Numbered from the stretch's first letter, positions 27,292-61,573 are shown. The stretch is 64,000 bases of DNA from Candidatus Spongiisociaceae bacterium (GCA_965202665.1 OZ241841.1:352001-416000), one strand, 5' to 3'. Notes: generated by a model from the sequence alone, not told the origin. Numbers and translations are program-made.

Positions 27292-27307
27292 CTGGAAACG
27301 TTGCCAG
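27292..27307. promoter_or_regulatory. Putative LacI-family operator CTGGAAACGTTGCCAG
   Basis: Near-perfect palindrome with central CG, between the divergent transporter and lactonase/LacI genes. Confidence 0.75.
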
Positions 27308-27461
27308 CCTACAGGCTACCCCGCCCCGTAAACCCGGTCAACCGATTTTTTTGATTTTATTTTTCGGGACGGCCGGGCGGCGGCGGGGGTAGACTGCGGG
27401 GCGCAAGCCGACAGACGAGGCGTCCGCGCCCGCGCCAGGCGGGAGGACGCAGGAGGTTGAA

Positions 27462-28346
27462 ATGAGCGACATCGCGTTCGTGGACACGCACATCCATTTC
27501 TGGGAGCGCCCCCACCCGACCTTGAAGTGGGTGTGGCTGGAGCCCGACTTCATCCATCCGCAACTGGGGGACACGGTGCTGCTGAAGGAGATGAAGACCT
27601 ACACCGCCCCCCAGTATTTGGAGGACATCGCCGGGTGCGGGGTTTCCAAAGCGGTGCATGTGCAGGCCGCCATCGGCACCGAAGACCCGGTGGAGGAAAC
27701 CAAATGGCTGCAGGCTATGGCCGATGAAACCGGGTGGCCGCACGGCATCGTCGGCGACGCCCGGTTGCAGCATCCGGATGTGGAAGGGGTGCTGGAACAA
27801 CATGCGGAATACCCCAACTTCCGCGGCCTGCGCGACTTCGCCGAAGGCGACTACCTGGTGGACCCGAACTTCCACCGCGGCTACTCCCTGTTGGAAAAAT
27901 ACAACCTGGTGTACGATTTGGACTGCACCTGGGAGAACATGCACAAGGCGGCCGACATGGCCCGCAAGTTCCCCAACATCATCCTCATCCTGGATCACGC
28001 CGGGTTCCCCCAGGACCGCACCGACGAATACTTCGCCAACTGGATGAAAGGCATGAGAACCCTGGGCCAAGTGGAAAACGCGGTCATCAAAATCTCCGGG
28101 CTGGGGATGGGCGACCAGATGGCGGGGAAAGTGTGGACGGTGGATTCCATCCGCCCCTACGTGCACGGCTGCATCGAGGCTTTCGGGGTGGAACGCAGTT
28201 TCTTCGGCACCAACTGGCCGGTGGACAAGATGTACTCCGCCTATTCGGCGCTGGTCGACGCCTACCGGGAGTTGATATCGGAGTTCAGCCCGGACGAGCA
28301 GGCCGCCCTGTTCTCCGCCAACGCCGAGCGCATCTACCGCATCTGA
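27462..28346 (+). CDS. Amidohydrolase_2 family (L-fucono/L-rhamnono-lactonase-like)
   Basis: DTHIHFW, VHVQA, LDHAG, KISG, FGTNWPVD, NAERIY. Confidence 0.85.
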   Translation: MSDIAFVDTHIHFWERPHPTLKWVWLEPDFIHPQLGDTVLLKEMKTYTAPQYLEDIAGCGVSKAVHVQAAIGTEDPVEETKWLQAMADETGWPHGIVGDARLQHPDVEGVLEQHAEYPNFRGLRDFAEGDYLVDPNFHRGYSLLEKYNLVYDLDCTWENMHKAADMARKFPNIILILDHAGFPQDRTDEYFANWMKGMRTLGQVENAVIKISGLGMGDQMAGKVWTVDSIRPYVHGCIEAFGVERSFFGTNWPVDKMYSAYSALVDAYRELISEFSPDEQAALFSANAERIYRI

Positions 28347-28409
28347 CCGAGCGCCGCCGGTTCCGCCCCGCCGGGGGACGGCCGCCCGGCCGCCCGGCCC
28401 GCCGGTAGG

Positions 28410-29456
28410 GTGGACGCGGCCATGTCCGCCGCCGACCGCGCCCCGCCCCCCACTATGAACGAGGTGGCCCGCCGGGCGGGGGTGGCCCTGTCTTCGGTGT
28501 CCCGGGTGATGAACGGGCATCCGGATGTGAGCGAAGAGATGCGCCGGCGGGTGTCGGAGGCCATGTCGGAGTTGGGTTACGAGCCCAACCTGTTGGCGGC
28601 CGGCCTGCGCCGGGGCAGGAGCCGCGCCATCGGGTTCATCGTCTCCGACATAGCCAACCCGCTGTTGGCGACCATTCTCAACTCCGCCCAAGCCGTCCTC
28701 GGCCGGCGGAAATACGCGGCGATGGTGGCCAACTCCAACGGGAGCCCGGAGCAGGAGGCGGAACTGGCCCGGCTGCTGCGGCAACGGCGGGCGGACGCGC
28801 TGGTGGTTTCCCTGTCGGACGAAACCAGTCCGGGGATTATGCGGGAGTTGCAGCGGCTGGACGGGCCGGTGGTGCTGTTGGACCGCCAAGCCCCCCTGTT
28901 GCGGGAGAAGGCGTCGGTGGTGGAATCCGACCACGATGCGGGAATGCGGCGGGCGGTGAAGCATCTGCTGAACCTGGGCCACCGCCGCATCGCCCTGCTG
29001 GCCGGGCCGCCCGACATCCGGCCCACCACCCGGCGGGTGGCCGGACATCGGGAAACCTTCGCCGAACTGGACCGCCCTTTCCCGGAAGATTTGGTGCGGT
29101 GGGGGTCTTTCACCCCCAAATTCGGGGAGGCGGCCGCCACGGAACTGCTGGATCAGCCGGAGCCGCCCACCGCTTTCATCTCCGGCGGCAACCGCATTCT
29201 GGTGGGCCTGATGCGGGTCCTGCGGCGCCGGGGGCTTCAGCCGGGGCGTGACATTTCGGTGGTGTCCTGCGACGACGTGCCCCTGTCGGAGCTGTACTCC
29301 CCGCCCATCACGGTCATCAACCGGGACATGCGGCTGATGGGGCAGACGGCCGCCGAACTGGCCCTGGAAAGAATCGACGATCCGTCCCGTCCGCCCCGCA
29401 CCGTCGTCCTCCCCACTTCCCTGGTGTTGCGGGAATCAACCGGCCGGGCGCCGTAG
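28410..29456 (+). CDS. LacI-family transcriptional regulator
   Basis: TMNEVARRAGVALSSVSRVMN HTH, ELGYEPN hinge, sugar-binding domain. Confidence 0.95.
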   Translation: MDAAMSAADRAPPPTMNEVARRAGVALSSVSRVMNGHPDVSEEMRRRVSEAMSELGYEPNLLAAGLRRGRSRAIGFIVSDIANPLLATILNSAQAVLGRRKYAAMVANSNGSPEQEAELARLLRQRRADALVVSLSDETSPGIMRELQRLDGPVVLLDRQAPLLREKASVVESDHDAGMRRAVKHLLNLGHRRIALLAGPPDIRPTTRRVAGHRETFAELDRPFPEDLVRWGSFTPKFGEAAATELLDQPEPPTAFISGGNRILVGLMRVLRRRGLQPGRDISVVSCDDVPLSELYSPPITVINRDMRLMGQTAAELALERIDDPSRPPRTVVLPTSLVLRESTGRAP

Positions 29457-29473
29457 CCGGGCCCGGCCCGCGC

Positions 29474-29713
29474 CTACCCGGTTTCTATTACGCAAACCGG
29501 GTCGCCCACCTCCACTTCGTCGTCGGGGGCGGCCAGCAATTCGGTTACCACCCCGGCCGCCGGGCTGGGGAAATCGGCCTCCACCTTGTCGGTTTCCACC
29601 CGCATCAGGACGTCCCCTTCGGCCACCCGGTCCCCTGCCGCCACCAGCCATTCCAGCACCACCACCTGCCCGGCGGTTTCCCCCAGTTTGGGCATTTTCA
29701 CTTTGACCAGCAT
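29474..29713 (-). CDS. Stand-alone lipoyl-carrier domain protein
   Basis: MPKLGE...W...GD-V..GD...VETDK, 79 aa. Confidence 0.9.
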   Translation of the reverse strand: MLVKVKMPKLGETAGQVVVLEWLVAAGDRVAEGDVLMRVETDKVEADFPSPAAGVVTELLAAPDDEVEVGDPVCVIETG

Positions 29714-29735
29714 CGTCGCTCCGCTTCCCAGGCTC

Positions 29736-30728
29736 TCAGGGGGCGTAGATGTTGGCGAACATGTCCTCCACCCCGGCCGGTTCCCCGGCGGCGGCCTCCG
29801 CCTCCGCCTCCGCCAAGCGCCGCGCCACCCCGGCTTCCATCTCCGCCGCCTGTTCTTCGGTCAACTCCCCTTCGTCCAACAACCGGCGGCGGTAAGTGTT
29901 GATGGGGTCTTTCTCGTACCACAGGTCGAATTCGCCTTCCGGCCGGTAGGGGGCCTTGTCGGCCCGGGAATGGCCCGCGTAACGGTAGGTTTTCATTTCC
30001 AGCAGGGAAGGCCCCTCCCCAGCCCGGGCCCGCGCCAGGGCGTTTTCCATGGCGGAGGCCACCGCGTCCACGTCCTGGCCGTCCACGATTTCGCCGGGCA
30101 TCCCGTAGGAGGCGGCCCGGTCGGCCAGATCGCCGATGGGGGTGGTCAGCTCAATGCGGCTGTACTCCCCGTACTGGTTGTTTTCGCACACGAACACCGC
30201 GGGCAGTTTCCAGATGGCGGCCAGGTTCAAACCTTCGTGGAAAGCCCCGATGTTGGCGGCCCCGTCCCCGAACACGGCCACCGCCGCCCGGTCGGTTCCC
30301 CGCACCTGGGCGGTGAGGGCCGCTCCTGCCGCCACCGGAATGCCCGCCCCCACGATGGCGAAGGTGGGGAGCAGTCCCACCGACGTGTCGCACAGGTGCA
30401 TGGAGCCGCCCACCCCGCCGATCGCCCCCAGTTTGCGGCCCATGATCTCCCCCATGATGCTGAGCGGGGTCATCCCCAGGGCCAGGGCCACCCCGTGGCC
30501 GCGGTAGGTGCAGGTGACGGTATCGTCGGGCCGGGCGGCGGCCGCCACCCCCACCGCCACCGCCTCCTGCCCCTGGCAGGTGTGGGTGGTGCCGTGCACC
30601 GTCCCTTCGAAGAACATTTCCTGCACCCGGTCTTCAAAAGACCGGATTTCGAACATCGCCTCGTAGCGGGCGGGGCGGCCCGACTGCAGGCGGCGGCGCC
30701 TTTCCAAAGAAGCGGTTCCGGGGCTCAT
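29736..30728 (-). CDS. TPP-dependent dehydrogenase E1 alpha subunit (PdhA/AcoA-like)
   Basis: GQEA, TYRGHG, GGSMH, GDGA...ENNQY, YRYAGHS; start at ATG 30728. Confidence 0.93.
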   Translation of the reverse strand: MSPGTASLERRRRLQSGRPARYEAMFEIRSFEDRVQEMFFEGTVHGTTHTCQGQEAVAVGVAAAARPDDTVTCTYRGHGVALALGMTPLSIMGEIMGRKLGAIGGVGGSMHLCDTSVGLLPTFAIVGAGIPVAAGAALTAQVRGTDRAAVAVFGDGAANIGAFHEGLNLAAIWKLPAVFVCENNQYGEYSRIELTTPIGDLADRAASYGMPGEIVDGQDVDAVASAMENALARARAGEGPSLLEMKTYRYAGHSRADKAPYRPEGEFDLWYEKDPINTYRRRLLDEGELTEEQAAEMEAGVARRLAEAEAEAAAGEPAGVEDMFANIYAP

Positions 30729-31753
30729 GCTCCCGCCTCCCTTCTCATCGGCTGTCTTTCCCACCAGTGGCGGGGGCGGCGGCCGGTTTCCAGCAACTCG
30801 CCGATCTGGGCGGCGATGTATTCGGAGTCGGGCATGTAGCGCTGCTCCAACTCGGCCGGGAAAGGGACGTTGGTGTCGGGGCTGGTGATGCGGATGGGCG
30901 GGGCGGCCAACTCCCCGAACAGTTCGCCGGTGACGTAGGAAACTATCTCGTTTCCCCAGCCGCCGGTGAAAGGGTTTTCCTCCACGGTGGCCAGCCGTTT
31001 GGTTTTGCCCACCGACCGCAACAGGAGCTCCTTGTCGTAGGGGAGCAACGTCCGCAAGTCGATCACCTCCGCCGACCAGGGGGCGTCCTCCGCCGCCTGC
31101 CGGGCGGCCCGCACCATGGACCCCAGGGCGACCACGGTGACGTCGTCCCCTTCCCGCAGGACTTCGGCTTTGCCCAAAGGGACGATCCCTTCTTCGCCGA
31201 CGGTCACTTCGTCCCGTCCGGCGTAGAGGGCGCGCGGTTCCAGCACCGCCACCGGGTTGTCGTCCCGCACCGCGGAGCGCATCAGCCCGTAGGCGCTTTG
31301 CGGCCCGGAGGCCACCGCCAACTTCAAGCCGGGGGCGGCGGTCATCCACGACTCCAAAGTCTGCGAATGCTGGCATCCGAACCCCAGTCCGGCCCCCACC
31401 GACCCCCGCACGGTGAGGGGCACTGTGACCGTCCCCCCCGACAGGTAGTGGAATTTGGCCGCTTCGGTTACCAGCTGGTCCAAAGCCACCCCCAGAAACT
31501 CGATGAACATTATTTCCACCACCGGGCGCAGTCCGGTGGCGGCCGCCCCCACCGCCGCCCCCAGGAAACCCATCTCCGAGATGGGGGTGTCCCGCACCCG
31601 TTTCGGGCCGTAGGCGTCCAGCAGGCCGGCCGAGGTTTTGAAGGGCCCTTCGGCCACCGCCACATCCTCCCCGAACACCACCACGTCCGGGTCGGCGGCC
31701 ATTTCGTCCGACAGGGCGGCGGCGATGGCCGCGTTCATTCGCAACTTGGGCAT
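30725..31753 (-). CDS. TPP-dependent dehydrogenase E1 beta subunit (PdhB/AcoB-like)
   Basis: GEDV, RVRDTPISE, QHSQ, EVIDLRTL. Confidence 0.93.
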   Translation of the reverse strand: MPKLRMNAAIAAALSDEMAADPDVVVFGEDVAVAEGPFKTSAGLLDAYGPKRVRDTPISEMGFLGAAVGAAATGLRPVVEIMFIEFLGVALDQLVTEAAKFHYLSGGTVTVPLTVRGSVGAGLGFGCQHSQTLESWMTAAPGLKLAVASGPQSAYGLMRSAVRDDNPVAVLEPRALYAGRDEVTVGEEGIVPLGKAEVLREGDDVTVVALGSMVRAARQAAEDAPWSAEVIDLRTLLPYDKELLLRSVGKTKRLATVEENPFTGGWGNEIVSYVTGELFGELAAPPIRITSPDTNVPFPAELEQRYMPDSEYIAAQIGELLETGRRPRHWWERQPMRREAGA

Positions 31754-31830: not shown

Positions 31831-31846
31831 CTGGAAACGTATCCAG
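31831..31846. promoter_or_regulatory. Putative LacI-family operator CTGGAAACGTATCCAG
   Basis: Palindrome upstream of E1 beta, next to a minus-strand TATAGT -10 box at 31814-31819. Confidence 0.72.
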
Positions 31847-33962: not shown

Positions 33963-33978
33963 CAGGTATCGTTTCCAA
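33963..33978. promoter_or_regulatory. Putative LacI-family operator (minus strand TTGGAAACGATACCTG)
   Basis: Degenerate copy between the divergent Gfo/Idh/MocA and SDR genes. Confidence 0.6.
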
Positions 33979-34023: not shown

Positions 34024-34773
34024 ATGACCGACCACGATTTTTACGGGACGTTGCCCGGCTTTGCGGGGCGGACGGCGGTGGTGACCGGGGCGGGGGGCGG
34101 CATCGGGCGGGCGGTGGCCGACGGCTTGGCCGGGCAGGGGGCCCGCACCGCCTATCTGGATGTGGCCCCGCCCCCCGATGTCGCGATGTTCGAAGGGCGG
34201 GCGGACAGGTGTTTCGTGGAATGCGACGTGTCGGACGCCGACTCGGTGGACGCGGCCTTCGGGGCGGTGGAGGCCCGATGGGGGACGGTTTCCATTTTGG
34301 TGAACAACGCCGGTATTTTCCGCATTCAGCCGCTGGAGGAAATGACTTTGGCGGATTGGGAGCGGATGCTGTCCGTCAACCTGACCGGGGTGTTCCTGTG
34401 CGCCAAACGGGCCCTGCCGGGGATGCGGGAGGCGGGTTACGGGCGGATCGTCAACCTGGGGTCCAGCGCCGGGAAAACGGGGGGGAGCAAAAACATGGCC
34501 GCCTACGCCGCCTCCAAAGCGGCGGTGATGTCGTTCACCAAGTCGGTGGCCTCCGAATACGCCGCCCACGGGATCACCAGCAACGCTTTGGCCCCGGCCC
34601 TGATAAACACCAGCATGGCGGAGGGCATAGCCGACCTGAAACATCTCATCCCGGTGGGCCGCCTGGGCGAACCGGAGGATGTGGCCCGGGCGGTCCTGTT
34701 CCTGGCCTCCGAGCAGGCTTCTTTCATAACCGCCGAAGTAATGGACGTAAACGGAGGCTTCCTAGTAGACTAA
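34024..34773 (+). CDS. SDR family oxidoreductase (FabG-like)
   Basis: TGAGGGIG, NNAG, YAASK; start MTDHDF. Confidence 0.92.
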   Translation: MTDHDFYGTLPGFAGRTAVVTGAGGGIGRAVADGLAGQGARTAYLDVAPPPDVAMFEGRADRCFVECDVSDADSVDAAFGAVEARWGTVSILVNNAGIFRIQPLEEMTLADWERMLSVNLTGVFLCAKRALPGMREAGYGRIVNLGSSAGKTGGSKNMAAYAASKAAVMSFTKSVASEYAAHGITSNALAPALINTSMAEGIADLKHLIPVGRLGEPEDVARAVLFLASEQASFITAEVMDVNGGFLVD

Positions 34774-36015
34774 ACAACACCCGTCCCTGAACCCAACCGC
34801 GCAGAATATCAGGGGCCGAAGGTTTGTTGGGCGGGGGCGGTGGCCTCGTGGGCGTGTTGCAGAAGGTTGTTCCAAGACACGATCAGCGAATTGTAAGCCA
34901 CCGCATCCTCGGTACGGCCAGCGCCGTTGGCCACCTCATATAACAGATAGGCCAGATGACGGGCGTAGTCGCCCAAACCCGGCCCCGCCCGAGCCAGCAA
35001 CACCCCGGCCTGGGCATCCGACCTGCCCTGGCGGGCCACCAAATGCTGAGTAAGCTCCCACACCGTCAACCGCCGATCCTCCGCCGGATCCCACTCCGGG
35101 TCCAACTCATCCCTGGTCAACAACCGCACCTTGCCGCCCTTGGATTCCGCCACCTCCGCCTCCACCACCCCCGACACCGACGTGTTCATCGCCTTCGCCA
35201 ACGTCTCCGCATCCCCAAACGGACCCGGCTGATGCCCAAACTGCCGATACCAAGTCAGGGCGAACCGACTGTCGGCATCCAAATCAGTTTCCTCCTGGGA
35301 CAGGATTTCTTCCAGCACCCCGTTAATCAAGGCAAGGGCGGTGCGCACCCGCATCGTGGAACCGTCCGCTTCCACCACCCGCTTATACCGGGAGAACACC
35401 CGCATACCCGGCCCGATAGCCGACTGCGCCATATCCACCGGCGGAATCGCCTGCTCCTGCAACAGCCCCACCGCCTCCGGTAATTCTTCCCGCAACGCCG
35501 CCAAAAACCCACCCCGCGTCTCCAACCGCGCATCCACAGAACGAGGCCGACAAGCCAACACCACCGACGACGACAACGCCGCGGCACCTTCGGCCACCGC
35601 CCGATTCGCCATCTCAGTTCGAACCGGCCACGTAGCAGTAACCTCTAAGCCAGCATCCACCAAGCCCTGCAAAAACGTCTCCCAACCGGTAGATGTTGTC
35701 GCCCCCTCTTTTATTTCCTGTTGCTTGAAAGCGTAAAAAATGGTTGCAGGAAAATCGGGATGTTGGACGCCAGAAATTTGCTCCATGACTTTGGTCATCT
35801 TCGATTCAAAATAGGACTTCGCCGCCACTTTGGAACCGGCTCGCCAAGGGTTCGCCACTAACTCCTCCTGTTTGGGAGTCAATAATGTCGCACACTCATC
35901 CGGCCATACTCTAGATAAGTTACGACGCAACCACACATAGTAAAAATCAGATATATCCGCATACTGTATATTATCGTAATAAGGCGGATCAGTACAAACT
36001 ACTGGTTTATTAATT

Positions 36016-37431
36016 GGCTCTTCGGATTTGAGGGGGGAGTTGGGGGTTAGGGGGGTTGCGTTGGTTTTGGGGTGGGGTCCTCCATAATCGGGGTTGTAAA
36101 CATATTCCCGAGGGTTAGGAGGACCCCTGTGGTGGCTGATTGTAGGCGGGTGAGTAGGGTTTTGGTGGGGTTGGATGGTGTTGAGGTGGTGGACGCGGAG
36201 GAGACGGCCGGGGGGTTGCTGGTGGTGGGGGTGCGGTTGGTGGGGAGTCCGCGGTGCGGGGGGTGCGGGGGCGGGGTGTTAAGTAAGGGTTGGAAGAGGG
36301 CGCGGTTGGTGGATCAGCCCTGTTTCGGCCGGGCGGTGATTTTGGAGTGGTTCAAACGGCGGTGGCGGTGTCCTGATGCGGGATGCGGGGTGGGGTCGTT
36401 TACGGAGCAGGACCCGCGGGTAGCCCCGCCGCGGGCCCGGTTGACTTCTCGGGCGGCTAGGTGGGCGACGCAGCAGGTGGGCCAGGGGCGGACGGTGTCG
36501 GGGGTGGCGGAGGAGCTTGGTTGCGACTGGCATACGGTGTCCAAGGAGGTGAACCGGTGGGGGGAAGCCCTGCTGGAAGCCGACCAGGATAGGGTGGGGA
36601 TAGTGGAGGCTTTAGGGTTGGACGAGACCCTGTTCCTCCGCCAGGGCCCTTGGCGGCGGCGGATGTGGATAACCGCGGCGGTGGACATCCGCAACCGTCG
36701 GCTGATCGACGTTTTCCCAGGTAAAGACGCTAAAGGAGCCGTACGGTGGCTGCTGGAGCAGCCGGCCGGGTGGCGGGAGAAAATACGATGGGCCACCCTG
36801 GATCTGTCCGGAGCTTACCGGGCCGCCTATAACCAGGCGCTGCCCAACGCCGTTCAGATCGCCGACCCGTTCCACGTCGTCCGGCTGGCCAACCTGTGCC
36901 TGGACCGGGTGCGCCGCCGCGTGCAAGAAGAAACCCTGGGACACCGCGGACGGAAAGGCGACGACCTCTACCGGATACGCAAACTCCTCACCCTCGCCCG
37001 CGAACGGCTCGACCCCCGCAGCGAGCAAAAACTGACCGGCCTCCTCCAAGCAGGAGACCCCCGCGGGGAAGTACGCGATGCATGGCACGCTAAAGAAACC
37101 GTACGGGGAATCTACCAAACCAACCACCCCTCCGAAGGCGACGAATACAACCGTCTGCTCGCCGCGGAACTCCAAGACCAATCATGCTCACCCGAACTCA
37201 ACCAACTCGGACGCACCCTCCACACCTGGCACCAACAGATCGTCGCCTGGCATCACGCCCAAGTAAGCAACGGACCCACCGAATCAGCCAACAACCTCAT
37301 CAAACGCGTCAAACGCGTCGCCTTCGGCTTCCGCAACTTCCGCAACTACCGAACCCGCATCCTCCTCTACGCAGGAAAACCCAACTGGAACCTACTCCCC
37401 AACCTCACTCCCCCCTAAAATCCGAAGAGCC
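36016..37431 (+). mobile_element. ISL3-family insertion sequence with terminal IRs and 8-bp TSD
   Basis: IRs GGCTCTTCGGATTT(G/T)AGGGGGGAGT; TSD TATTAATT at 36008-36015 and 37432-37439. Confidence 0.95.
36072..37418 (+). CDS. ISL3-family transposase
   Basis: CGGCG...RRWRC Zn finger, LGLDE, LDLS-AY, DPFHVV, SNGPTESANN-IKRVKR-AFGFRNF-NYR. The true start may be slightly downstream. Confidence 0.95.
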   Translation: MGSSIIGVVNIFPRVRRTPVVADCRRVSRVLVGLDGVEVVDAEETAGGLLVVGVRLVGSPRCGGCGGGVLSKGWKRARLVDQPCFGRAVILEWFKRRWRCPDAGCGVGSFTEQDPRVAPPRARLTSRAARWATQQVGQGRTVSGVAEELGCDWHTVSKEVNRWGEALLEADQDRVGIVEALGLDETLFLRQGPWRRRMWITAAVDIRNRRLIDVFPGKDAKGAVRWLLEQPAGWREKIRWATLDLSGAYRAAYNQALPNAVQIADPFHVVRLANLCLDRVRRRVQEETLGHRGRKGDDLYRIRKLLTLARERLDPRSEQKLTGLLQAGDPRGEVRDAWHAKETVRGIYQTNHPSEGDEYNRLLAAELQDQSCSPELNQLGRTLHTWHQQIVAWHHAQVSNGPTESANNLIKRVKRVAFGFRNFRNYRTRILLYAGKPNWNLLPNLTPP

Positions 37432-38585
37432 TATTAATTTCCCCTAAGCGCGCCACCGCATCTCGTTGACATACCTCGCCAAACTGAGAACTTGGTAATA
37501 TAGCGACGGCTCTCGCTACCCATTCAACCTGACCCAACCAATTGCCGGTAGAGGAAGAAAACGGGTTGGCCTCAGCATAATCCCACACCATAGCTACAGC
37601 CTGCCTACCAAAAAGACCTTGAACCTTTTCTCCTCCATCCCACCATCTTGACAGGCTATTCCATCGAACAGCACAACGATCTAAGGCAAAAGATAGGTAA
37701 GTAGTCATTGCATCCGCATAGGCGACATTACCTGTTCCACCATCCCTGAAATTTGCTTTGTCGTTATCCAATCCCGCGTGTAAAGCATCCGCTTCCGCCA
37801 TCGCTCTCACGTCTTCTAGCAAATCGGAAAAAGCATTCAACGCAGACAACTGCCTGTCAGTGAATAAATCTCCCCACTCCGTCATACCATATAAGGGAAC
37901 GTTGTTAGCGGCCTTACCAACCAGTCTACCGGTTGGTTTCCAACCCGCTGGAGAAGCATCCGGTATTTTGGACGGGTTTTGATATATACGACCGGGATTG
38001 CCCTCAAGAACAACACCTATAGGGGATTCACTCATCAATCCTAATCTGCCCTGCTCCCGAATATATTTAAACCCAATGGGCGCGCCGGTAGCTACGCAGA
38101 CGCCGCCTCCCCGACCCATGGTGCCTCCTCTTGGGGTCCCGCCTTCCCTAACCTGATAGGTCACCGTTTGGGTATCCCGATTCACAATCGGCTCCACCCA
38201 TGCTACCGGCTTGTTTTTTTTGGCTTTACGTAACACCCCGGATTTGAGAAGGGGAACATGGCCTTTCCAGGACGGGTCAGGGGACTGGACGGTCCGGGCC
38301 CACAACCAGGCAATTACCGTTTTGCCATCCACCTTCGGATACAGATGGCCGATACGCTCCCATGCCCGCTCTCGCATCCACTGCCCGTAGTATCTGATGT
38401 CCTCTGCCAAACCTTGCGCGCCCTCCCATGTCTTCAACCCCGACTCCGCCCGGCTTCTCGGATTGACCGGCGGCCGTCCCGCAAAGCGGGGCGGAATCTC
38501 CACCATCGCCTTCGTTATGAGAACCGGGACCGGATTTAGGTCGCCCCCGTACGCCGGCAGTCCCAGCCGTTGCGCCTCCAAAGGG

Positions 38586-38600
38586 CCCCCCCCCCCCCCC
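38586..38600. repeat. C15/G15 homopolymer in SAM-binding motif I of the DUF1156 MTase
   Basis: 15 consecutive C on the + strand; G14 would restore the frame. Confidence 0.9.
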
Positions 38601-39085
38601 GCAGAAGGGGTCTAAAACATTGGGCAAGTCATCCCCGCACGACGCCTTAATCTCGGCCTTGGCTTCGGCCAGCACATCCGGGTCGTTGCTGTTTTCCCAC
38701 ACCACCAAACGTTCCAGAATGTCAAACAGCCGCTTGCGCTCCGTCTTCTGGTCTTCCGCCGTGGGGAACCTGCCGGGATGGGCGGACGGGTCGTCCACCA
38801 GCGACGACCACAGCACAGCCCGCACCGCCGCCAGCGGACGGCGGGCCCACCACAGATGCAAAGTGGAAGGATGGCCGTGGCGGATGGACTTCTCGCGGGC
38901 CGACTCCCGGCTTATCGCCTCCAACGGCAACGCCACCTCAATCAGTTTTCGTTTCGGAGCCATCCATCTCCTCGGGGAAGTTTCCTCCAGCCTACCCGTC
39001 CCGCCGGGTCATCGCCCAACCCGGCGCGGGGATAAACCCTCCCCCCACCGGACCCGCTGTCATCCGCCGACGGTGAAACCTCTTC

Positions 39086-40504: not shown

Positions 40505-40799
40505 TCAACCTTTCCGTCAACCTATCGGGATTGTAGTCGCCTCCCGTCTTCGGTTGCCTCCATTGTAACACATCCCCCCTCCCGGTGCTAAACAAACCGG
40601 GAAATATTTTACGGCGAATGAATAGCTATTCCGAGTTGCGGATTAGCCGGCGCGATGTTGCCGAGAGTGGGGGGAGGAGGGTTAGCGGCGGAGGATGGGG
40701 GCGATCCAAAACCAGTTCCCATCCCTTGAGGTCATGGGGCGGGAACTTTCTTGGGGGGCGGGGTCGTCTAAAGGGCAACCTAACCGGAAGGAGGTTGCT

Positions 40800-44956: not shown

Positions 44957-45142
44957 TTTCCCCTCCCTATAGCGGACGACTGGGTTGTCCAAAGCATCAT
45001 AACCACCGGGGCGGATCTAGTTGAACAAGTCCGTCTGCAAGGCGGGCGGGGCGGTTTTCCCGGCAACCCCCGGGGGTTTGTCGGAGGGCTGTGCTAAAGT
45101 CCTTCCCGTTACGGAAACGGCGGCGAGACGAGGAGGGCCGAG

Positions 45143-45457
45143 ATGCAGCGAGCCTGCTTCACTTTTGAGATTTATCCGCACATGGCGGACGAGTACAAGA
45201 AGCGCCACGATGAGATCTGGCCGGAGCTGGTGGATCTTATCCGGGAGTCCGGCTTGAAGAACTACACCCTGTTCCGGCGGGGAACGCAGGTGATCGCCTA
45301 TGTGGAATGCCACCCGGATGTGGAAACCGCCTTCGCCAAGGTGGGGGCCTCCGAGGTGAACGCCCGCTGGTCCAAATGGTTCGAGGAGGTGATCGTCAGC
45401 CTGGTGGACGAGGACGGCAACCTCTACTGGGCGGACGAAGTTTGGCACCAGGACTGA
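45143..45457 (+). CDS. rhaM: L-rhamnose mutarotase-family protein
   Basis: EYKKRHDEIWPEL...GLKNYTLF...VNARW. Confidence 0.8.
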   Translation: MQRACFTFEIYPHMADEYKKRHDEIWPELVDLIRESGLKNYTLFRRGTQVIAYVECHPDVETAFAKVGASEVNARWSKWFEEVIVSLVDEDGNLYWADEVWHQD

Positions 45458-45476
45458 GCCTCCCCGTCCGCCCCTT

Positions 45477-48634: not shown

Positions 48635-48651
48635 TAGGAAAGGAAATCAAA

Positions 48652-52206: not shown

Positions 52207-52319
52207 CGTCGCCTCCTCGCTTGCCTCCCGCGCCTTTTCCCCGGCGTCGCCGACGCGCCGGGCGGTTCAAAGACTAGGGTATTCATTGAAACGTCGCCGG
52301 AACCCGCAAAGGAGCGCAT

Positions 52320-56224: not shown

Positions 56225-56473
56225 GGGGGCTAGGTCAGTTCGAACAAGGATGGCGACCGCCCCAGCCCCGCCGGAGAACTTTGCGGGGCTGTACGATGTC
56301 AACGACGAAATGTTCACGGCGGGGTTCTTAGCCGCTCTGGAACGATTGCCCGACGGATACCGATTCGACCCCGACACCGGAATCCTGCTCCGCGACGACC
56401 CCACCCTGGACCCCTACCCCTACCTGGGCGCCCTCTACTCTTCGGAAGAGGGCCAGGGGGGCTAGGTCAGTTC
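56029..56473. repeat. Imperfect tandem duplication, 232-bp period (about 56029-56241 and 56261-56473)
   Basis: Both copies encode PAPPE-F-GLYDVNDE...LERLPDGYRFDPDTGILLRDDPTLDP-PYLG and end in GGGGGCTAGGTCAGTTC. Confidence 0.9.
56250..56465 (+). CDS. Small protein or duplicated C-terminal module of the upstream gene
   Basis: ATG at 56250, MATAPAPPENFAGLYDVNDE...; 71 aa. Confidence 0.45.
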   Translation: MATAPAPPENFAGLYDVNDEMFTAGFLAALERLPDGYRFDPDTGILLRDDPTLDPYPYLGALYSSEEGQGG

Positions 56474-57469
56474 TCCGGCTCGCCAGGCTTTCAGGTAGTT
56501 CATGCAGAACTCGTCCCGGCCGAGCAGGGTGTCGCAAGCCAGCCGGTAGCCGGGCGACTCCCGGTCGGCGGCCCAAACTTCGGCCACCGGATTCATCACC
56601 GGGTCGATAATCCCGCTGTCCGCCCCCGCCTCCGTCGCCAGGTTGATGAAGGCGGCGTTCATCAACTTGCGGGCCGGGATCCCGAAAGAAACGTTGCTGA
56701 GGCCGCCGGTGATGTGAATGCCGGAACCGAACCGCTCCCTCAAACCGCGGATGGCGTCCAACACGTGCAACCCGTACGACCCATCCACCGAAATGGGGAA
56801 AACCAACGGGTCCACGTAAATGTCGTCCTCCGCCAGCCCCCCCGCCAAAGCCGCCTCCACCATCCGGGAGGCGTTGTCGATGCGCTCCCCGGCGTCGGAA
56901 GGCATGCCCTCCGACCCCGACGAGGTAACTATCACCCGGGCCCCATGCTCCACCGCCAATTCCAAAGCGTCGATCCGTTCCAGGGAAGCCGAGTTGAGCA
57001 TGGGACGGGCCCCGTTGCCGGCCGCCGCCCGCAAACCGGCCGCGATGGACTGCACGTCGGAGGAATCGACCGACACCGGCAACTGGGAGTGTTCCCGCAC
57101 GAACCCGACCAGCCACACCATCGCCTCCCGTTGCTCGGCGGGCCGCAGGGAAATCTCATCCACGTTCACATCCAGGAAATGGGCCCCCGCCCGTTCCTGA
57201 TCGCGGATCACCCGTCGCAGGTACTCCTCCCCCTCTGGGGCGCCCCTCATCGCCTCCCGCACCGCCAAGGCGATGTGCTTGACGCGGCCCTGTTGAAACT
57301 CTTTGCCGGCCGTCATCCATTCCGTCACCGGCAGAAACCCCTCCTCGCCCCCGATGGTGGTGAAAACCACTCCCCCCCGTCCGTCCCGCTCCGCGAACCG
57401 TTTGCCTTTGCGCAACAGGATGCGGCTGGCGTGGATGTTCTCCCCGATGACGATGAAAGGGCCGCTCAC
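56462..57469 (-). CDS. Methyltetrahydrofolate:corrinoid methyltransferase (AcsE/MetH pterin-binding domain-like)
   Basis: IGENIH, GAHFLDVN, SVDSS, LNS, DPLVFPI, GGLSNVSFGIP-R..N, IIDP; GTG start overlaps the upstream stop. Confidence 0.88.
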   Translation of the reverse strand: MSGPFIVIGENIHASRILLRKGKRFAERDGRGGVVFTTIGGEEGFLPVTEWMTAGKEFQQGRVKHIALAVREAMRGAPEGEEYLRRVIRDQERAGAHFLDVNVDEISLRPAEQREAMVWLVGFVREHSQLPVSVDSSDVQSIAAGLRAAAGNGARPMLNSASLERIDALELAVEHGARVIVTSSGSEGMPSDAGERIDNASRMVEAALAGGLAEDDIYVDPLVFPISVDGSYGLHVLDAIRGLRERFGSGIHITGGLSNVSFGIPARKLMNAAFINLATEAGADSGIIDPVMNPVAEVWAADRESPGYRLACDTLLGRDEFCMNYLKAWRAGELT

Positions 57470-59172
57470 CGCCCCGCTCCCGCCAGCGCCGGCTCCGCAG
57501 GCCCCGCCGGGCCGTCGGAAACGGGGGCGAACGGAAATACTTCCGGCATCGGCTTCAGTTGGCATCCCTCCACGAACACATCGAAGAAGTCGGTAGAGGT
57601 TTCCAGTTCAATGTGGGTTACGTCTTTCACCCGTTCCTCCAGGGCCGCCCGGCGGGAGGCGGACAGCAACACCCGGCGGGCCCCGTCGATGGCCGCATTG
57701 CCCACCCGCGTGATGCGTTCCGGCGGAATGGGCGGTATCAGGCCGATTTCCGCCGCGTTGCGGGCGTTGATGTAGGAGGCGAACCCCCCGGCCAGAAACA
57801 GCCGTTCCACATCGGCGGGCTGCACCCCGGCCGCCCGCATGACGATCAGCTGGCCGCTGTAGTTGGCGGCTTTCGCCTGGGCCAGATTGCCGACGTCCTG
57901 CTTGGAAAAAGTAATGCCCCGTTCGGGGAAGAGATCCATCTGGAAACGGCGCCGGTCGGCGGAGAACACCCCCCGTTCGGTCATAATCCCGTGCCGCCGC
58001 ACTTCGGCCAACAGGTCGATCAGGCCCGACCCGCACAACCCCGCCGGGGGTTGGCCGCCGATGGTGGCGTATTCGGCGGGGGTTCCGTCCGGGGCGAGGC
58101 GGATGGATTCGACGGCCCCCTCGTAGGCCCGCATCCCGTAGGAGACCAGCCCCCCTTCGAAGGCGGGCCCGGCCGGGCAGGAAGCGGCGAACAGCCGCCC
58201 CCGGTGGTGGAGGAGCACCTCGGTGTTGGTGCCGATGTCCACCAGCATGTTGGTTCCGCCCCCGGCCGCCAGATCCACCGACTCCAAACAGGCGGCGGCG
58301 TCGCCCCCCACATGGCTGGCCACCAGCGGCAACCCGTAGACCCGCGCCCGCCGGTTGGCCCGGATGCCCAACTCTTCGCTGCGGGCCAGCAGGGCGGTGG
58401 TGGGGCGGCGGCCGTCCAAATATTCGCGCTCCGTCAGCGACTTGTAAGGTTTGGAGCCGATGCTCTGCACGTCCCAGCCGAACAGGATGTCCCGCATGGT
58501 GGAGTTGCCCGCAACCGTGATCTCGTACACGCAGGGCGGGCGGCGCCCGACGGAGGCGGTCAACTCCCGGATGCCCTGATTGAGGTAGGTGACCGCCGCC
58601 TTCTGCAACTCCCCCGCCGCCCCGGGCTGGGCTTCGTAGGAGATGCGGTTCATCACGTCGCTCCCCCCGAACCGTTGCGGGTTCTCGAAACTGGCCACCG
58701 CCGCCGGGCGGCCGGTTTCCAAATCCACCAGTTCCATCACCACGGTGGTGGTGCCCAAATCCACCGCCAGCCCGAAAATCGCCCCCCGGTAGGAGTCCAC
58801 CCGCTCCCCGTCGTACAACACCGACTCCCCCGCCCGGACGACCAGCGGATCCAACGGGCCGGGAGGGGCGGCGGGGGACTGCGGTTCCAAGATGCGGGGG
58901 CGGCGGCGCAGGGCGGCGAATTCGATGGGGGAGGCCGGGTCCATGATGCGGGCCTGGCAGGCCAGGCGGTAGTCGTCCCGCAGGAAAGCCTCCGCGGCGG
59001 TGGGGGGGAGCAGCGATTCCATGCCGGAAATGATTTCCACCACGCATTCGTGGCATTGGCCGGTGCGGCGGCAGGAAGTGGGCACCTCCACCGCCAGTTC
59101 GTCGGCGTAATCGAAGATGGTCTTGCCCGCCTCCGCCGGACGGGCCTCCCCGCCGTGCCGAACCTCGCTCAT
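57466..59172 (-). CDS. ATP-dependent corrinoid reductive activator (RACo/DUF4445 ASKHA family) with N-terminal 2Fe-2S domain
   Basis: C..TGQCHEC...RLACQ, DLGTTT, NPQ..G-DV..RI, GN-TM, VGGD, DIGTNTE, AGPAFEG, CGSG, LAGGF, GNAA. Confidence 0.92.
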   Translation of the reverse strand: MSEVRHGGEARPAEAGKTIFDYADELAVEVPTSCRRTGQCHECVVEIISGMESLLPPTAAEAFLRDDYRLACQARIMDPASPIEFAALRRRPRILEPQSPAAPPGPLDPLVVRAGESVLYDGERVDSYRGAIFGLAVDLGTTTVVMELVDLETGRPAAVASFENPQRFGGSDVMNRISYEAQPGAAGELQKAAVTYLNQGIRELTASVGRRPPCVYEITVAGNSTMRDILFGWDVQSIGSKPYKSLTEREYLDGRRPTTALLARSEELGIRANRRARVYGLPLVASHVGGDAAACLESVDLAAGGGTNMLVDIGTNTEVLLHHRGRLFAASCPAGPAFEGGLVSYGMRAYEGAVESIRLAPDGTPAEYATIGGQPPAGLCGSGLIDLLAEVRRHGIMTERGVFSADRRRFQMDLFPERGITFSKQDVGNLAQAKAANYSGQLIVMRAAGVQPADVERLFLAGGFASYINARNAAEIGLIPPIPPERITRVGNAAIDGARRVLLSASRRAALEERVKDVTHIELETSTDFFDVFVEGCQLKPMPEVFPFAPVSDGPAGPAEPALAGAGR

Positions 59173-59549
59173 TCCGCCGCCTCCGAATCGGCCCCGTCCG
59201 CCTCCCGCCGTTGGGCGGCTTCCCGTTTGATGGAGGCTATCTTGTCTTTGGTGCGGCGGTAGGCCCGGGCGTCGGTCTCCCAGGCGGTGCGGTAGTCGAA
59301 GGTTCCGTCGTGGCCGCAGAACAGCTCCTCCGGGTCGGCCTCCTCCGCCCGCTGGTTGCGGCATCGGAACAGGGCGGTGCATCGGTCCAGGCGGTCCCGG
59401 TAGGGGCACCGCAACCGGGACACCTCCTCGGCGTGCGAGGCCACCCCGGTGAAAATCTGGTTGATCCGGTCCAGGCGGAGGCGTATCTCCTCCGGGTCCA
59501 ACGGCTCCGGATGGGGGGGCTCGGAGGCGGGGGGCGGGGATTCGGCCAT
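59169..59549 (-). CDS. Small Cys-rich hypothetical protein
   Basis: RCPYR...CTA-FRCRNQ...C..DG; coupled between the corrinoid protein and the activator. Confidence 0.75.
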   Translation of the reverse strand: MAESPPPASEPPHPEPLDPEEIRLRLDRINQIFTGVASHAEEVSRLRCPYRDRLDRCTALFRCRNQRAEEADPEELFCGHDGTFDYRTAWETDARAYRRTKDKIASIKREAAQRREADGADSEAAE

Positions 59550-59552
59550 CGG

Positions 59553-60302
59553 CTACGCCCCCGCTACGGCCAGTTCTTTGGCCAAAGCCACGCAGGCCAG
59601 GGCGTCTTTGCCGTAGCCGTCAGCCCCCACATCCTCGCCGAATTCGGGAGTGACCGGGGCGCCGCCCACCATGAAACGAACTTGCTCCCGCAGTCCCTCG
59701 TCTTTGAAAGCCTCCACCGTTTTGGCCATGTTGGGCATGGTGGTGGTGAGCAGGGCGGACATTCCGATCACCATGGCGTTGTTCTCTTTGAAAGCGGCGA
59801 TGAACTCTTCCGGGGAGGTGTCCACCCCCAGGTCCACCACCGTGAAACCGCCCCCCCGCAACATCATTATGCACAGGTTTTTGCCTATGTCGTGCAGGTC
59901 GCCTTTGACGGTGCCCATGATCACCGTTCCAACCGGCTCGGAACCGGAGGCGGCCAGGATCGGCTCGATGTGGGCCATTCCGGCTTTCATCGCCCGGGCG
60001 CACACCAGCACCTCCGGCACGAAAATGAAACCTTCGCGGAATTTGATCCCTACGATCCCCATTCCGGCGATGAGGCCGTCGTCCATAATCTCCAAAGCCC
60101 CCACCCCGTTGTCCAAAGATTCCCGGGTCATCTCGTCCACCGCCTCGTTGTCGCCCATGATCAGGGCGGCGGCGATGTCCTGCATCTCCGGCGAGGCGGC
60201 CGCGAACAGTTCTATGTTGCGTTCGATCTCCTCCGGGTCATCGAGGAACTCCTCTATTTCCTCCCGGATGATTTCGCTTACGATATCGGAAAGTTGCGCC
60301 AT
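59553..60302 (-). CDS. Corrinoid (B12-binding) protein of a methyltransferase system
   Basis: GL-AGM-IVG-KF...FVPEVL, GTVKGDLHDIGKN, SALLTTT, VGGAP. Confidence 0.95.
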   Translation of the reverse strand: MAQLSDIVSEIIREEIEEFLDDPEEIERNIELFAAASPEMQDIAAALIMGDNEAVDEMTRESLDNGVGALEIMDDGLIAGMGIVGIKFREGFIFVPEVLVCARAMKAGMAHIEPILAASGSEPVGTVIMGTVKGDLHDIGKNLCIMMLRGGGFTVVDLGVDTSPEEFIAAFKENNAMVIGMSALLTTTMPNMAKTVEAFKDEGLREQVRFMVGGAPVTPEFGEDVGADGYGKDALACVALAKELAVAGA

Positions 60303-60345
60303 TGTCCCGTTCGGTTGCGTTGCTGCGGCCTGCTCGGCCCCACAT

Positions 60346-60365
60346 TACTGGAAACGTTTCCAGTA
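60346..60365. promoter_or_regulatory. Putative LacI-family operator, perfect 20-bp palindrome TACTGGAAACGTTTCCAGTA
   Basis: About 45 bp upstream of the corrinoid protein start; same core as the sites in the sugar cluster. Confidence 0.8.
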
Positions 60366-60427
60366 GGCAAGCCGCCGGCTAAAAAGGTGCTGCGGCCCCG
60401 CCTCGGAAAAGGGCCTCTTGCCGGGCT

Positions 60428-61546
60428 TTACCCTCCGTTGTGGGTTACAAAACGCCCGTCGGGACGGTGGGCGTTGGAATAGTCCCGGCAGGAGTCGGCC
60501 AAAGCCCGCAACACTTCCATTTTGGTGCCCAGCGGCACCGAACCCTCCGGGGCGATCCCCTGCACCCCCGCCTCCAGCACCGCCATACAGGCGTCGTAGG
60601 TGTCCTGGTAGGTGCCGCTGAACAGGGTGGTCGGGTTATTGATGTTGCCCATCAGGGACATGCGCCCGTCGGTGATGCTCATGGCCTTATACGGGTCCAC
60701 CTGCGATTCGAAGTGGAAGCAGTCCCATCCCGCTTCGGCGAAGTAGTCGATGCGGTCGGTGGTTTCCCCGCAACAGTGCAGGATGCCGGGCCCGCCCATC
60801 TCGGCGGAAATGTGCTGGTGCATTTCCAGCAGGAAATCCCGGTAGGTTTCGGGGCTGACCAACTCCCGGTTGGCGTGGTCGCACCACATCACCGCGTCCG
60901 CCCCCGCCTCGAACTGGGCGTGGGCCGACATCATGGAGGCGGGCAGCAGCACTTCCAGAAAACGGCGGATCTTGTCCGGCTCGGTGAGGGTGCCCATCAG
61001 CCAGTTCTCGATGCCCACCATATGGAACCCCACCGACCAGGCTCCGTACACCTTGCCCACGATGGCCACATCCGGATAACGTTTGCGCAACAGCCGGATG
61101 GCCCCCAGGACCGCCTGAAAAGAGCGCCTGTTCAGATAGTCGGAGGGGACTTTGAAATCCTCCGGGTCGGTCAGCACGTGGCTTTTAGTGGCGGGCCAGT
61201 TGTCCCGCTCCCCCCACCAGGTGTCGGCGTCCAAAGCGTCGGCTTCCAGCTGGGAGTGGAACACCGGCATAACCGTGTCCAAACCCAGGTTTTCGTGGGC
61301 GGTGGCGGCCAGGCGGGCCATTTTCTCCGCATCCAGATGGGCTTCGGGGAAGTCGGCGTCGGCGATGTCCATGGCCTCCAACGTCACCACCGAACTGAGG
61401 GTCATGGCCGGCACCTTGTCCACCCGCCCCCCGTACAGGGCCGACAGAAAGCGGCGGCGGGGGGTCATCCACTCCCCCGACAGCCGAGCCGTGCGGGGAG
61501 GTTCGGCCACCTCCGGTTTGCGCGCCTTGTCCCTGGTGTAAGCCAT
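60428..61546 (-). CDS. MtaA/CmuA-family methyltransferase (uroporphyrinogen decarboxylase fold)
   Basis: MTPRRRF, FPEAHLDAEKMARLA, EADAL, AGAD, ILHCCG, MGNINNP. Confidence 0.88.
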   Translation of the reverse strand: MAYTRDKARKPEVAEPPRTARLSGEWMTPRRRFLSALYGGRVDKVPAMTLSSVVTLEAMDIADADFPEAHLDAEKMARLAATAHENLGLDTVMPVFHSQLEADALDADTWWGERDNWPATKSHVLTDPEDFKVPSDYLNRRSFQAVLGAIRLLRKRYPDVAIVGKVYGAWSVGFHMVGIENWLMGTLTEPDKIRRFLEVLLPASMMSAHAQFEAGADAVMWCDHANRELVSPETYRDFLLEMHQHISAEMGGPGILHCCGETTDRIDYFAEAGWDCFHFESQVDPYKAMSITDGRMSLMGNINNPTTLFSGTYQDTYDACMAVLEAGVQGIAPEGSVPLGTKMEVLRALADSCRDYSNAHRPDGRFVTHNGG

Positions 61547-61557
61547 ACATCCCTTTC

Positions 61558-61573
61558 CTGGAAACGTTACCGG
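61558..61573. promoter_or_regulatory. Putative LacI-family operator CTGGAAACGTTACCGG
   Basis: Lies between a minus-strand extended -10 (TGGTATCCT, about 61580-61588) and the MtaA-like RBS. Confidence 0.7.

Follow-up and report, generated by a model that had tools for sequence, protein, structure and literature searches.

How a repressor of sugar catabolism might come to govern a cobalamin (B12) methyltransferase, and what kind of substrate would call for both, is the question raised by one window of DNA from a Candidatus Spongiisociaceae bacterium (Acidimicrobiia). The window is a stretch of 64,000 nucleotides, bases 352001–416000 of a one-contig genome of 2.77 Mb (64% G+C, 94% complete), and in it five copies of one palindrome stand close to the genes of a sugar pathway and of a B12 module. 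The original prediction held that the LacI-family protein encoded at 28410..29456 (plus strand; Pfam), the likely cognate regulator, controls both gene sets as one regulon, and comparative genomics bears this out, the sites tracking the LacI ortholog (15 of 15 genomes with it, 0 of 6 without) and being confined largely to this region. We hold it highly probable that the sugar and B12 genes form one shared regulon. As to its purpose, the reading that we favour, and judge a little better than evenly balanced, is that the module demethylates, in an oxygen-independent manner, an O-methyl sugar taken up by the cell or the acid derived from that sugar. The relatives of this genome are probably sponge symbionts. 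That view fits the sponge-associated UBA5794 lineages described in PMC12008989.

All five palindromes lie where they had been predicted, between genes and close to promoters, with a start codon 12–155 bp away. Operator 1 (CTGGAAACGTTGCCAG, 27292..27307, 23.3 bits) separates the divergent genes of the sugar-binding protein (SBP) and a lactonase and lies 5 bp past the TTGACC-17-TAGCCT promoter of the former; operator 2 (CTGGAAACGTATCCAG, 31831..31846, 23.4 bits) is upstream of an E1-beta gene; the weaker operator 3 (TTGGAAACGATACCTG, 33963..33978, minus strand, 14.2 bits) lies between divergent genes for a Gfo-type oxidoreductase and a short-chain dehydrogenase (SDR), and is absent at the same place in the same-genus genome G004. 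On the B12 side, operator 4, a perfect palindromic 20-mer (60346..60365, 27.5 bits), occupies the internal promoter of the corrinoid gene, where the family consensus is CTGGAAAGGTTTCCAG, with a GG centre, and operator 5 (CTGGAAACGTTACCGG, 61558..61573, 22.0 bits) has a −10-like box (TATCCT) on one side and the mtaA ribosome-binding site on the other. Relative to their promoters, operators 1 and 5 are in repressor positions. Local LacI-family regulons are described as using even palindromes of 16–22 bp, mostly CG-centred with a deviating minority (PMC4052901), and the sites found here fit the even-palindrome, near-start-codon and few-operon features of such regulons.

The scores come from a matrix trained on 51 intergenic sites from metagenome loci of other organisms, with five loci close to the genome's own family omitted; its seed was the window's own core, and its independence covers the places at which sites are found, not the motif. 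When the 1,977 upstream regions of the genome are ranked with it, the top five are those of the corrinoid, E1-beta, lactonase, SBP and mtaA genes. Intergenic sites of at least 20 bits number four in the region's 8,639 bases against one in 509,120 bases elsewhere, and of the eleven intergenic sites genome-wide that reach at least 14 bits five are in the region; the 14-mer core has 10 matches in the window at up to three mismatches, against a shuffle mean of 2.65, with 10 reached in 0 of 100 shuffles. Because these five sites head the genome's upstream regions, the palindrome is not the site of a global regulator, a possibility that the original prediction had itself raised. The weaker sixth copy that it had proposed at about 52286 did not hold up: the site starts at 52287, scores 6.9 bits, a level reached by 6% of upstream regions, and is absent from G004. 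A strong counterpart exists in the distant genome G421, and the site (52286..52301), without support as a working operator, is possibly a relic. Further operator-like sites lie at genome positions 168262, 518291 and 2206822, the first of them (L220), as read from the sequence, a 23.9-bit site between rodA-like and RNase E/G-like genes. Two other candidates were set aside, one before xylA, which lies within coding sequence and has lost its CG in G004, xylA itself being absent from 21 of 22 regulon-bearing relatives, and one at a zwf-like start (genome 2328168), which overlaps coding sequence.

The identity of the repressor is suggested by a comparison with 28 other genomes of the family. The genome encodes three LacI proteins, and the other two differ in the recognition helix, which in the form SSVSR..HPDVS is shared by nearly all LacI proteins in loci with this gene set, inside and outside the family. 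An ortholog of the 28410 protein (53–82%) occurs in 16 of the 28 genomes, the copy in G012 carrying a stop, and the corrinoid-promoter site, the best conserved of the five, is kept at 17 bits or more in all 15 genomes that combine the ortholog with an intact module, as well as in G008, where the LacI locus runs off the contig end. In six LacI-negative genomes of genus g7 this site has decayed in every case, to between −16 and 5 bits, with the −35 and −10 boxes intact; in all five g7 loci examined LacI is gone from its syntenic place, the lactonase and SDR genes being followed by lipoyl and E1 genes without a trace of it, and G024 has one LacI-positive and one LacI-negative contig. The mtaA site reaches at least 20 bits in 8 of 15 LacI-positive relatives. 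From these comparisons the palindrome is likely to be the operator of the 28410 LacI. The genome's second LacI is an unlikely regulator of the sites, since its orthologs persist in most of the g7 genomes in which the corrinoid site has decayed.

The two gene sets also share their distribution. Full-length mtaA (81–93%) and gene 52320, which encodes a member of an unnamed Cys/His-rich family that is the regulon's most constant marker, occur in the same 22 of the 28 family genomes; an E1-alpha ortholog is likewise found in 22, of which 21 belong to that set, and the gene order of the module is the same in 22 family genomes where the contig covers it. G002 and G003 have the order LacI, lipoyl, E1-alpha, E1-beta, operator and mtaA module, and G009 holds most of the gene set inside 28 kb. 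In a Chloroflexota class (251 genomes, the centre genome having been picked because it bears mtaA), gene 52320 turned up in 5 genomes and mtaA in 3, all of these among the 5 and one of them being that centre; the five Chloroflexota mtaA genomes obtained from a homolog search all carry gene 52320, one of them in broken form, and in G599 mtaA lies 36 bp after the Gfo gene, between LacI/E1 and dehydratase genes. Operator-like sites of 15.9–18.6 bits precede mtaA in three of these five genomes and are weak in the other two. Since co-occurrence and adjacency in the Acidimicrobiia are matched by this overlap and by the interleaving in G599, the link between module and sugar regulon appears to be present in two phyla, and the co-occurrence on which the original prediction had staked itself is found, and other genomes also link the gene sets physically. 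In 80 metagenome loci centred on homologs of gene 52320 (flanks up to 10 kb; 31 loci of at least 10 kb), isomerase genes recur in 31, Zn dehydrogenase in 41, mutarotase in 23, lactonase in 24, E1 in 16–17 and LacI in 17; the operator is present in 47 of the 80, a circular figure in that the matrix was trained there. The system is seen in decay in G012 (L027, L037), where LacI has its stop codon, the mtaA and corrinoid genes are truncated and the marker gene was not found.

The module itself is a complete four-part corrinoid system, with all parts encoded together on the minus strand: an MtaA/CmuA-like methyltransferase of the UroD superfamily (60428..61546; TIGR01463, 234.6 bits against a cut-off of 235.4), the proposed methyltransferase I (MT-I); a corrinoid protein with a DxHxxG motif (59553..60302; PF02310, PF02607); a RACo-type ATP-dependent corrinoid reductive activator with a 2Fe-2S domain (57466..59172; PF14574, PF17651, PF00111); and a pterin-binding methyltransferase (56462..57469; PF00809; NF005719 at 195 bits, under its cut-off of 259), the methyltransferase II (MT-II) from corrinoid to tetrahydrofolate (THF). 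For these genes and for LacI, Pfam and NCBIfam agree on the identities that had been assumed. An unnamed Cys-containing protein of 126 aa (59169..59549, minus strand) is encoded between the corrinoid and activator genes, overlapping the RACo start, and its position is conserved in the Acidimicrobiia; its cluster search returned unnamed clusters only, and in several Chloroflexota modules DUF1638 follows the corrinoid gene in its place. Given its location at the RACo start and its replacement by DUF1638, this protein may assist cobalt reactivation.

The nearest solved relative of the MtaA-like enzyme is methanogen MtaA (PDB 4ay7, E 6.5e-45), and alignment with it shows two zinc ligands kept (His257, Cys259), the third Cys replaced by Gly335 and the motif PGCG by PEGS. 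In a set made up of the query, the best 120 of 1,242 homologs and one Moorella protein, PEGS is found in 81 of the 84 homologs with at least 57% identity (the other 3 being truncated) and the Cys is kept in 35 of the 38 more distant ones; the Gly form makes up one side of a branch with SH-aLRT support of 100 in a quick tree with midpoint root. According to PMC10418091, His-Cys-Cys marks S-methyltransferases, and O-methyltransferases swap one or both Cys for carboxylates or non-ligands. The His-Cys-Cys site of the MtaA-type S-methyltransferase (SCMT) is thus lacking in this clade, whose apparent loss of the thiol-type zinc Cys fits O- over S-methyl chemistry. Because the module already has an MT-II, the MtaA-like protein is best read as a donor-specific MT-I. 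The nearest named cultured homolog among the matches listed comes from Moorella thermoacetica (about 52%) and retains the Cys; solitary mtaA genes of Moorella have been reported to be down-regulated on methanol and not used for it (PMC13391211).

A route to consume methyl-THF is available in MetF, FolD and Fhs, all encoded in the genome, in which, at 94% completeness, neither a MetH homocysteine S-methyltransferase domain nor MtaB (PF12176) was found. A MetF-like gene lies between the RACo and MT-II genes in two Chloroflexota modules, one of them with FolD in the locus. The presence of MetF, Fhs and FolD, the lack of the MetH homocysteine domain and the MetF-like genes of the Chloroflexota modules together favour oxidation of the methyl group, by analogy with the scheme put forward for glycine betaine in marine aerobic bacteria (PMC12478193). 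A second corrinoid module, of the glycine-betaine MtgBCD type and with MetF, lies at genome 950463–960293 (L221), and the corrinoid, MT-II and RACo proteins of the window are 49%, 32% and 30% identical to its own. The genome also has a weak MetE-like gene (2524598–2525704). Some cluster versions contain a recurring protein of 357–367 aa (L193 1005–2108; L116 7146–8219) with no Pfam or NCBIfam match, which is possibly MetE-like.

The sugar genes were identified by scanning 40 proteins from 20.2–61.9 kb of the window against Pfam and NCBIfam, on gene calls from a hexamer model whose start positions are approximate. On the minus strand, a CUT2-type monosaccharide ATP-binding cassette (ABC) importer (Pfam, NCBIfam) comprises a binding protein (26142–27242), to which ribose-binding proteins are only distant relatives (PDB match at E 2e-19), an ATPase (24614–26107) and a permease (23522–24607). 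The tail of its operon (20219..23488) encodes an SDR (22754–23488), a VOC/glyoxalase-like protein (22249–22767), an enolase-superfamily dehydratase-like protein of the MR/MLE type (21029–22165; best PDB matches 5olc and 4ggb) and a second SDR (20219–20986), all assigned by Pfam and all missing every specific NCBIfam cut-off. The lactonase-like enzyme across operator 1 belongs to the amidohydrolase-2 family (27462..28346, plus strand; PF04909; PDB 4dlf), its nearest NCBIfam model being L-fucono-1,5-lactonase at 109 bits against a cut-off of 400. Beyond LacI, a thiamine pyrophosphate-dependent E1 (beta, 30725–31753; alpha, 29736–30728) and a stand-alone lipoyl domain (29474–29713) are encoded on the minus strand (Pfam, NCBIfam), with neither an E2 core nor an E3 at this locus (29474..31753); in some free-living versions (L114, L115, L195) the catalytic domain of E2 has its own gene in the neighbourhood, next to CoA-transferase, MaoC and HpcH-like genes. 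A Gfo/Idh/MocA oxidoreductase (32829–33926) and a xylose-isomerase-like TIM barrel (31880–32776) follow on the minus strand (Pfam, NCBIfam), and an SDR dehydrogenase on the plus strand (34024..34773; Pfam).

The original prediction had linked two clusters across 34 kb. The interval between them belongs to one island that holds more regulon genes and is broken by insertion-sequence and restriction-modification insertions. In this middle stretch lie Cys-rich protein A of the unnamed family (42619–43698, minus strand) and, on the plus strand, genes assigned by Pfam to EamA (43805–44569), a rhamnose-mutarotase-like protein (45143–45457) and arabinose/fucose-isomerase-like protein A (45507–46934), families which repeatedly adjoin the operator in unrelated organisms; no strong operator site was found upstream of these genes (42619..46934) in this genome. 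Further on, isomerase-like B (50776–52206, minus strand) is divergent from Cys-rich protein B, the product of gene 52320 (52320–53447, plus strand), which is followed by a Zn alcohol dehydrogenase (53493–54515; Pfam, NCBIfam) and a tartrate/D-malate dehydrogenase (54528–55589; NCBIfam cut-off passed, 509 against 470), both on the plus strand. Isomerase-like A and B are 37% identical, and Cys-rich A and B 42%. Because sugar genes fill the middle stretch, and since no sugar kinase, aldolase or FAH hydrolase is present among the 40 proteins scanned, the sugar and B12 genes are one broken-up island of kinase-free, oxidative design.

Clues to the substrate are of several kinds. The mutarotase, fucose/arabinose-isomerase-like, fuconolactonase-like and aldonate-dehydratase-like families would suit deoxy-sugars or pentoses, and the paired paralogs suggest that several related sugars may be handled; the class most likely involved is a fucose-, rhamnose- or pentose-like O-methyl sugar. 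At the positions where acidic residues of L-arabinose isomerase align, presumably its catalytic glutamates, isomerase-like A and B carry NCH and CTGD. Because of this replacement, neither may be an ordinary aldose-ketose isomerase. Searches of the PDB with the binding protein, isomerase B, the lactonase, the MR/MLE enzyme and two P450s returned distant matches only, and NCBIfam gave one generic match above cut-off for 21 accessory proteins. Chloroflexota versions of the cluster repeatedly include members of two P450 groups (4 of 80 loci; G427, G429, G470, G599, G602), and these fit methylated substrates because P450s are known to demethylate 6-O-methyl-galactose (PMC6292453). The notion that P450 and B12 module replace each other was rejected, both being present together in G427, G429, G470 and G599.

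Put together, these observations suggest a working model in which an inducer frees the 28410 LacI and so switches on the importer, the oxidative pathway and the B12 module at once. The CUT2-type system would import the methylated sugar; mutarotase, dehydrogenases, lactonase and dehydratase would convert it to a keto acid, which the E1/lipoyl proteins and the tartrate-type dehydrogenase would shorten. The MtaA-like MT-I, with zinc held by oxygen-type ligands, would transfer the methyl group to Co(I) of the corrinoid protein and the pterin-binding MT-II would pass it on to THF, RACo and ATP would re-reduce oxidised cobalt, and MetF, FolD and Fhs, encoded elsewhere in the genome, would oxidise the methyl-THF. 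The wider proposition, that a new MtaA-derived clade with an oxygen-ligand zinc site cleaves sugar methyl ethers via cobalamin, within an undescribed kinase-free rare-sugar pathway built on an unnamed Cys-rich enzyme family, in sponge-type Acidimicrobiia and in soil and freshwater Chloroflexota, we regard as evenly poised. Of the pathway that had been predicted (import of a methylated sugar or cyclitol, cobalamin-based demethylation and oxidation of the backbone), the chemistry fits the Cys loss, the THF-methylating MT-II and MetF/FolD/Fhs.

Several observations weigh against this interpretation. The identity of the substrate was not obtained from homology, only the tartrate dehydrogenase passing a specific cut-off among the sugar enzymes; the MtaA-like enzyme is nearer in sequence to the thiol-methylating MtaA than a typical O-demethylase would be; and the P450s of the clusters give generic PDB matches only and accompany the module rather than stand in for it. 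The family site is usually GG-centred rather than CG-centred, and the six LacI-negative genomes share one genus and may represent one deletion event. In LacI-positive relatives whose loci could be scored the sugar-gene sites are patchy (lactonase/SBP kept in 6 of 11, E1-beta at 17 bits or more in 2 of 13), and four LacI-positive g7 genomes keep the corrinoid site alone. The B12 module is found in 2 of the 80 gene-52320 loci, and in 1 of the 31 loci of at least 10 kb, where with flanks of up to 10 kb it may lie elsewhere; G421 (Acidimicrobiia) carries the regulon but no mtaA, and in four genomes of genus g57 the module is accompanied by neither gene 52320 nor a LacI ortholog. The g57-type loci retain the TATCCT box together with a relic-like site, and the four genomes have the isomerase-A/dehydratase pair in another sugar cluster, on account of which they look like derived losers of LacI control. 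Since the regulon often has no module nearby, and in g57 the regulon is missing where the module is present, the B12 genes form an optional component of a broader regulon for rare sugars; the module was not found in 393 of the 401 Acidimicrobiia genomes searched. In a second Acidimicrobiia group (L053, L056, L060, L062–L064, L066–L069, L071–L075, L081) the module occurs at 82–86% identity in other surroundings, with an M24 peptidase, amidohydrolases and a relic operator, possibly by transfer between symbionts.

Other explanations have to be weighed against the same evidence. It is unlikely that the same regulon instead serves to capture free methanol, freed by the sugar enzymes through elimination or hydrolysis from a methyl glycoside (Gfo and TIM barrel) or a 3-O-methyl aldonate (MR/MLE enzyme), with the MtaA-like protein as a new methanol-activating MT-I. 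Such a route would fit the placement of the Gfo and AP_endonuc_2 genes in one operon and the best matches of the MR/MLE enzyme, 5olc and 4ggb, which are presumably ring-opening cycloisomerases that break a C–O bond; an oxygen-type zinc site would suit methanol equally well, and MtaB, the MT-I of the methanol methyltransferase MtaABC, was not found in the genome. The known methanol MT-Is are, however, of the MtaB family (PMC13391211), and the behaviour of the solitary mtaA genes of Moorella on methanol (PMC13391211) may tell against the idea as well. Quite unlikely, too, is a donor of the O-methyl cyclitol kind (pinitol, ononitol, sequoyitol) on a Thermotoga-like inositol route (IolG/IolM/IolN/IolO). 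The top NCBIfam matches of the Gfo enzyme and the Zn dehydrogenase are inositol 2-dehydrogenase and scyllo-inosose 3-dehydrogenase IolM, creatininase-family genes with a weak IolN match recur in relatives, and the order is reported to use inositol (PMC12008989), but all these matches fall far under cut-off (68/355, 187/450 and 36–50/245 bits), no IolN/creatininase-like gene was found in this genome, and the mutarotase, lactonase and aldonate-dehydratase families indicate aldoses.

A donor methylated on nitrogen or sulfur, for instance an N-methylated amino sugar or a methylthio sugar, is decidedly unlikely: amine-dehydrogenase-like genes (15 of the 80 loci) and creatininase-like and dimethylformamidase-like genes do occur in related clusters, and the other members of the MtaA lineage act on sulfur, but this clade is without the thiol-type third Cys, no aminotransferase or sulfur genes are present among the 40 window proteins scanned, and N-methyl donors appear, by analogy with PMC12478193, to have their own MttB-type cluster in the genome. 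We consider it very improbable that the system runs in reverse, from methyl-THF through the corrinoid to an acceptor, to replace the methionine-synthase domain or to methylate a sugar. The homocysteine S-methyltransferase domain was indeed not found in this 94% complete genome, taking the methyl group off methyl-corrinoid is the normal task of MtaA-type enzymes, and MT-II may work in both directions (PMC12478193). Methionine synthesis would, however, fit poorly with control by a repressor of sugar catabolism and with the lost thiol-binding Cys, and the weak MetE-like protein encoded elsewhere and the rarity of the module in the class are further points against the reverse reading. Barely credible, finally, is the view that the palindrome serves a global regulator, forms an RNA hairpin or is there by chance, and that the module has nothing to do with the sugar genes. 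One strong intergenic site does lie outside the region, at genome 168262, and module and regulon stand apart in some lineages, but the clustering here of the better intergenic sites, the tracking of one LacI and the coding position and CG loss of the xylA candidate all weigh against it, and there are no terminator-like features or Rfam matches at the sites, nor any Rfam match over the window.

The two architectures that would be combined in a sugar-regulated O-demethylase, the four-component corrinoid system and the local LacI regulon, are both already known. The corrinoid O-demethylases Odm/Vdm of Acetobacterium dehalogenans, Mtv of Moorella and Mto of Methermicoccus, and the related Cdm (PMC13222342, PMC10418091), are likewise described with a UroD-superfamily MT-I, a corrinoid protein, a pterin-binding MT-II and an ATP-dependent activator in a cluster and with methyl transfer to THF; they belong to strict anaerobes and act on aryl methyl ethers or haloalkanes, whereas the module described here has an MT-I of MtaA-like lineage, an extra 126-aa gene and a place in a LacI sugar regulon with an ABC importer. 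With MtaA, MtbA and MtsA (4ay7) the module shares the His-x-Cys zinc ligands and an accompanying corrinoid protein and RACo, and differs in the lost third Cys. Type 1 mlp clusters, which by the definition in PMC10418091 need two or more MtaA-like genes and lack a THF methylase inside 20 kb, have two or three such genes; the present genome has one, with MT-II 3 kb away. The MtgBCD glycine-betaine demethylase of aerobic marine bacteria (PMC12478193) resembles the module in its RACo-type activator, MetF-linked methyl oxidation and oxygen-respiring heterotrophic hosts, and differs in relying on an N-methyl donor and an MT-I of the MttB family. In marine Bacteroidota, P450 carbohydrate demethylases (PMC6292453) have the same proposed task of unblocking a methylated sugar, but they need oxygen and release formaldehyde, whereas a B12 route would need none and would keep the methyl group on folate.

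Non-phosphorylative L-fucose and L-rhamnose pathways use, as the island does, a mutarotase, an SDR, a lactonase and an enolase-family dehydratase. Their difference from the island, and that of local LacI-family regulons, which also have a 16-bp even palindrome near promoters and an in-cluster regulator (PMC4052901), lies in its E1/lipoyl, two isomerase-like and two unnamed Cys-rich proteins, and in the lack of kinase, aldolase and FAH hydrolase. The word "methyltransferase" is absent from the main text of the LacI regulon survey (PMC4052901) and "corrinoid" from PMC12008989, and in the literature that could be searched, outside which most subscription journals lie, no paper was seen by its title or the opening of its abstract to describe a corrinoid demethylase that is under sugar control and has an oxygen-type site derived from MtaA. 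The new elements here are the operator data, a LacI deletion that arose in nature and a zinc-site change that runs through the clade, and the operator gives two unnamed protein families a place in a defined pathway. Methylated sugars are reported to resist bacterial breakdown and to accumulate in surface-ocean organic matter (PMC6292453, PMC4817625), and the carbohydrate demethylases that we found described are oxygen-dependent P450s. If O-demethylation by the module is true, it would bring sugar ethers within reach of a corrinoid chemistry described for aryl ethers, amines, methanol and haloalkanes, would allow demethylation in low-oxygen phases of sponges, soils and sediments, would provide an oxygen-independent sink for methyl sugars persisting in marine dissolved organic matter, and might yield a selective sugar-demethylation catalyst.

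The unnamed Cys/His-rich family has 807 representatives at E<=0.001, and in more than 80% of 53 aligned full-length sequences Cys241, Cys286, His288, Cys289 and Cys326 are kept. For protein B, Pfam and NCBIfam gave no match and PDB folds no clear one, and none of 25 distant members of the family has a Pfam match. The single-sequence model of protein B reaches a pLDDT of 38 and its alignment-based model 91.6; with the latter, Foldseek gave no match at E<=0.001, VIA-align returned generic four-helix bundles only (Z up to 9.2, residues 16–154), the C-terminal part being barely covered. The Atlas gave unnamed clusters and, for protein B, a lead towards ATC_hydrolase with a fairly high score.

The insertion at 34809..42578, which is no part of the pathway, contains a DUF1156 fragment, unassigned open reading frames (ORFs), an ISL3 transposase (36165–37418) and a vWA lipoprotein (40800–42578), and the ISL3 element amid the DUF1156 fragment (34809–40504) helps to split the island. 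The low-G+C insertion at 47048..50805 (plus strand), a DNA methylase-HNH gene with a GmrSD restriction gene, is present in G004 too. Two tandem, similar 71-aa ORFs without a family match lie at 56009–56465, and a low-G+C stretch at 9178–15290, with five ORFs that have no Pfam match, is possibly a foreign insertion.

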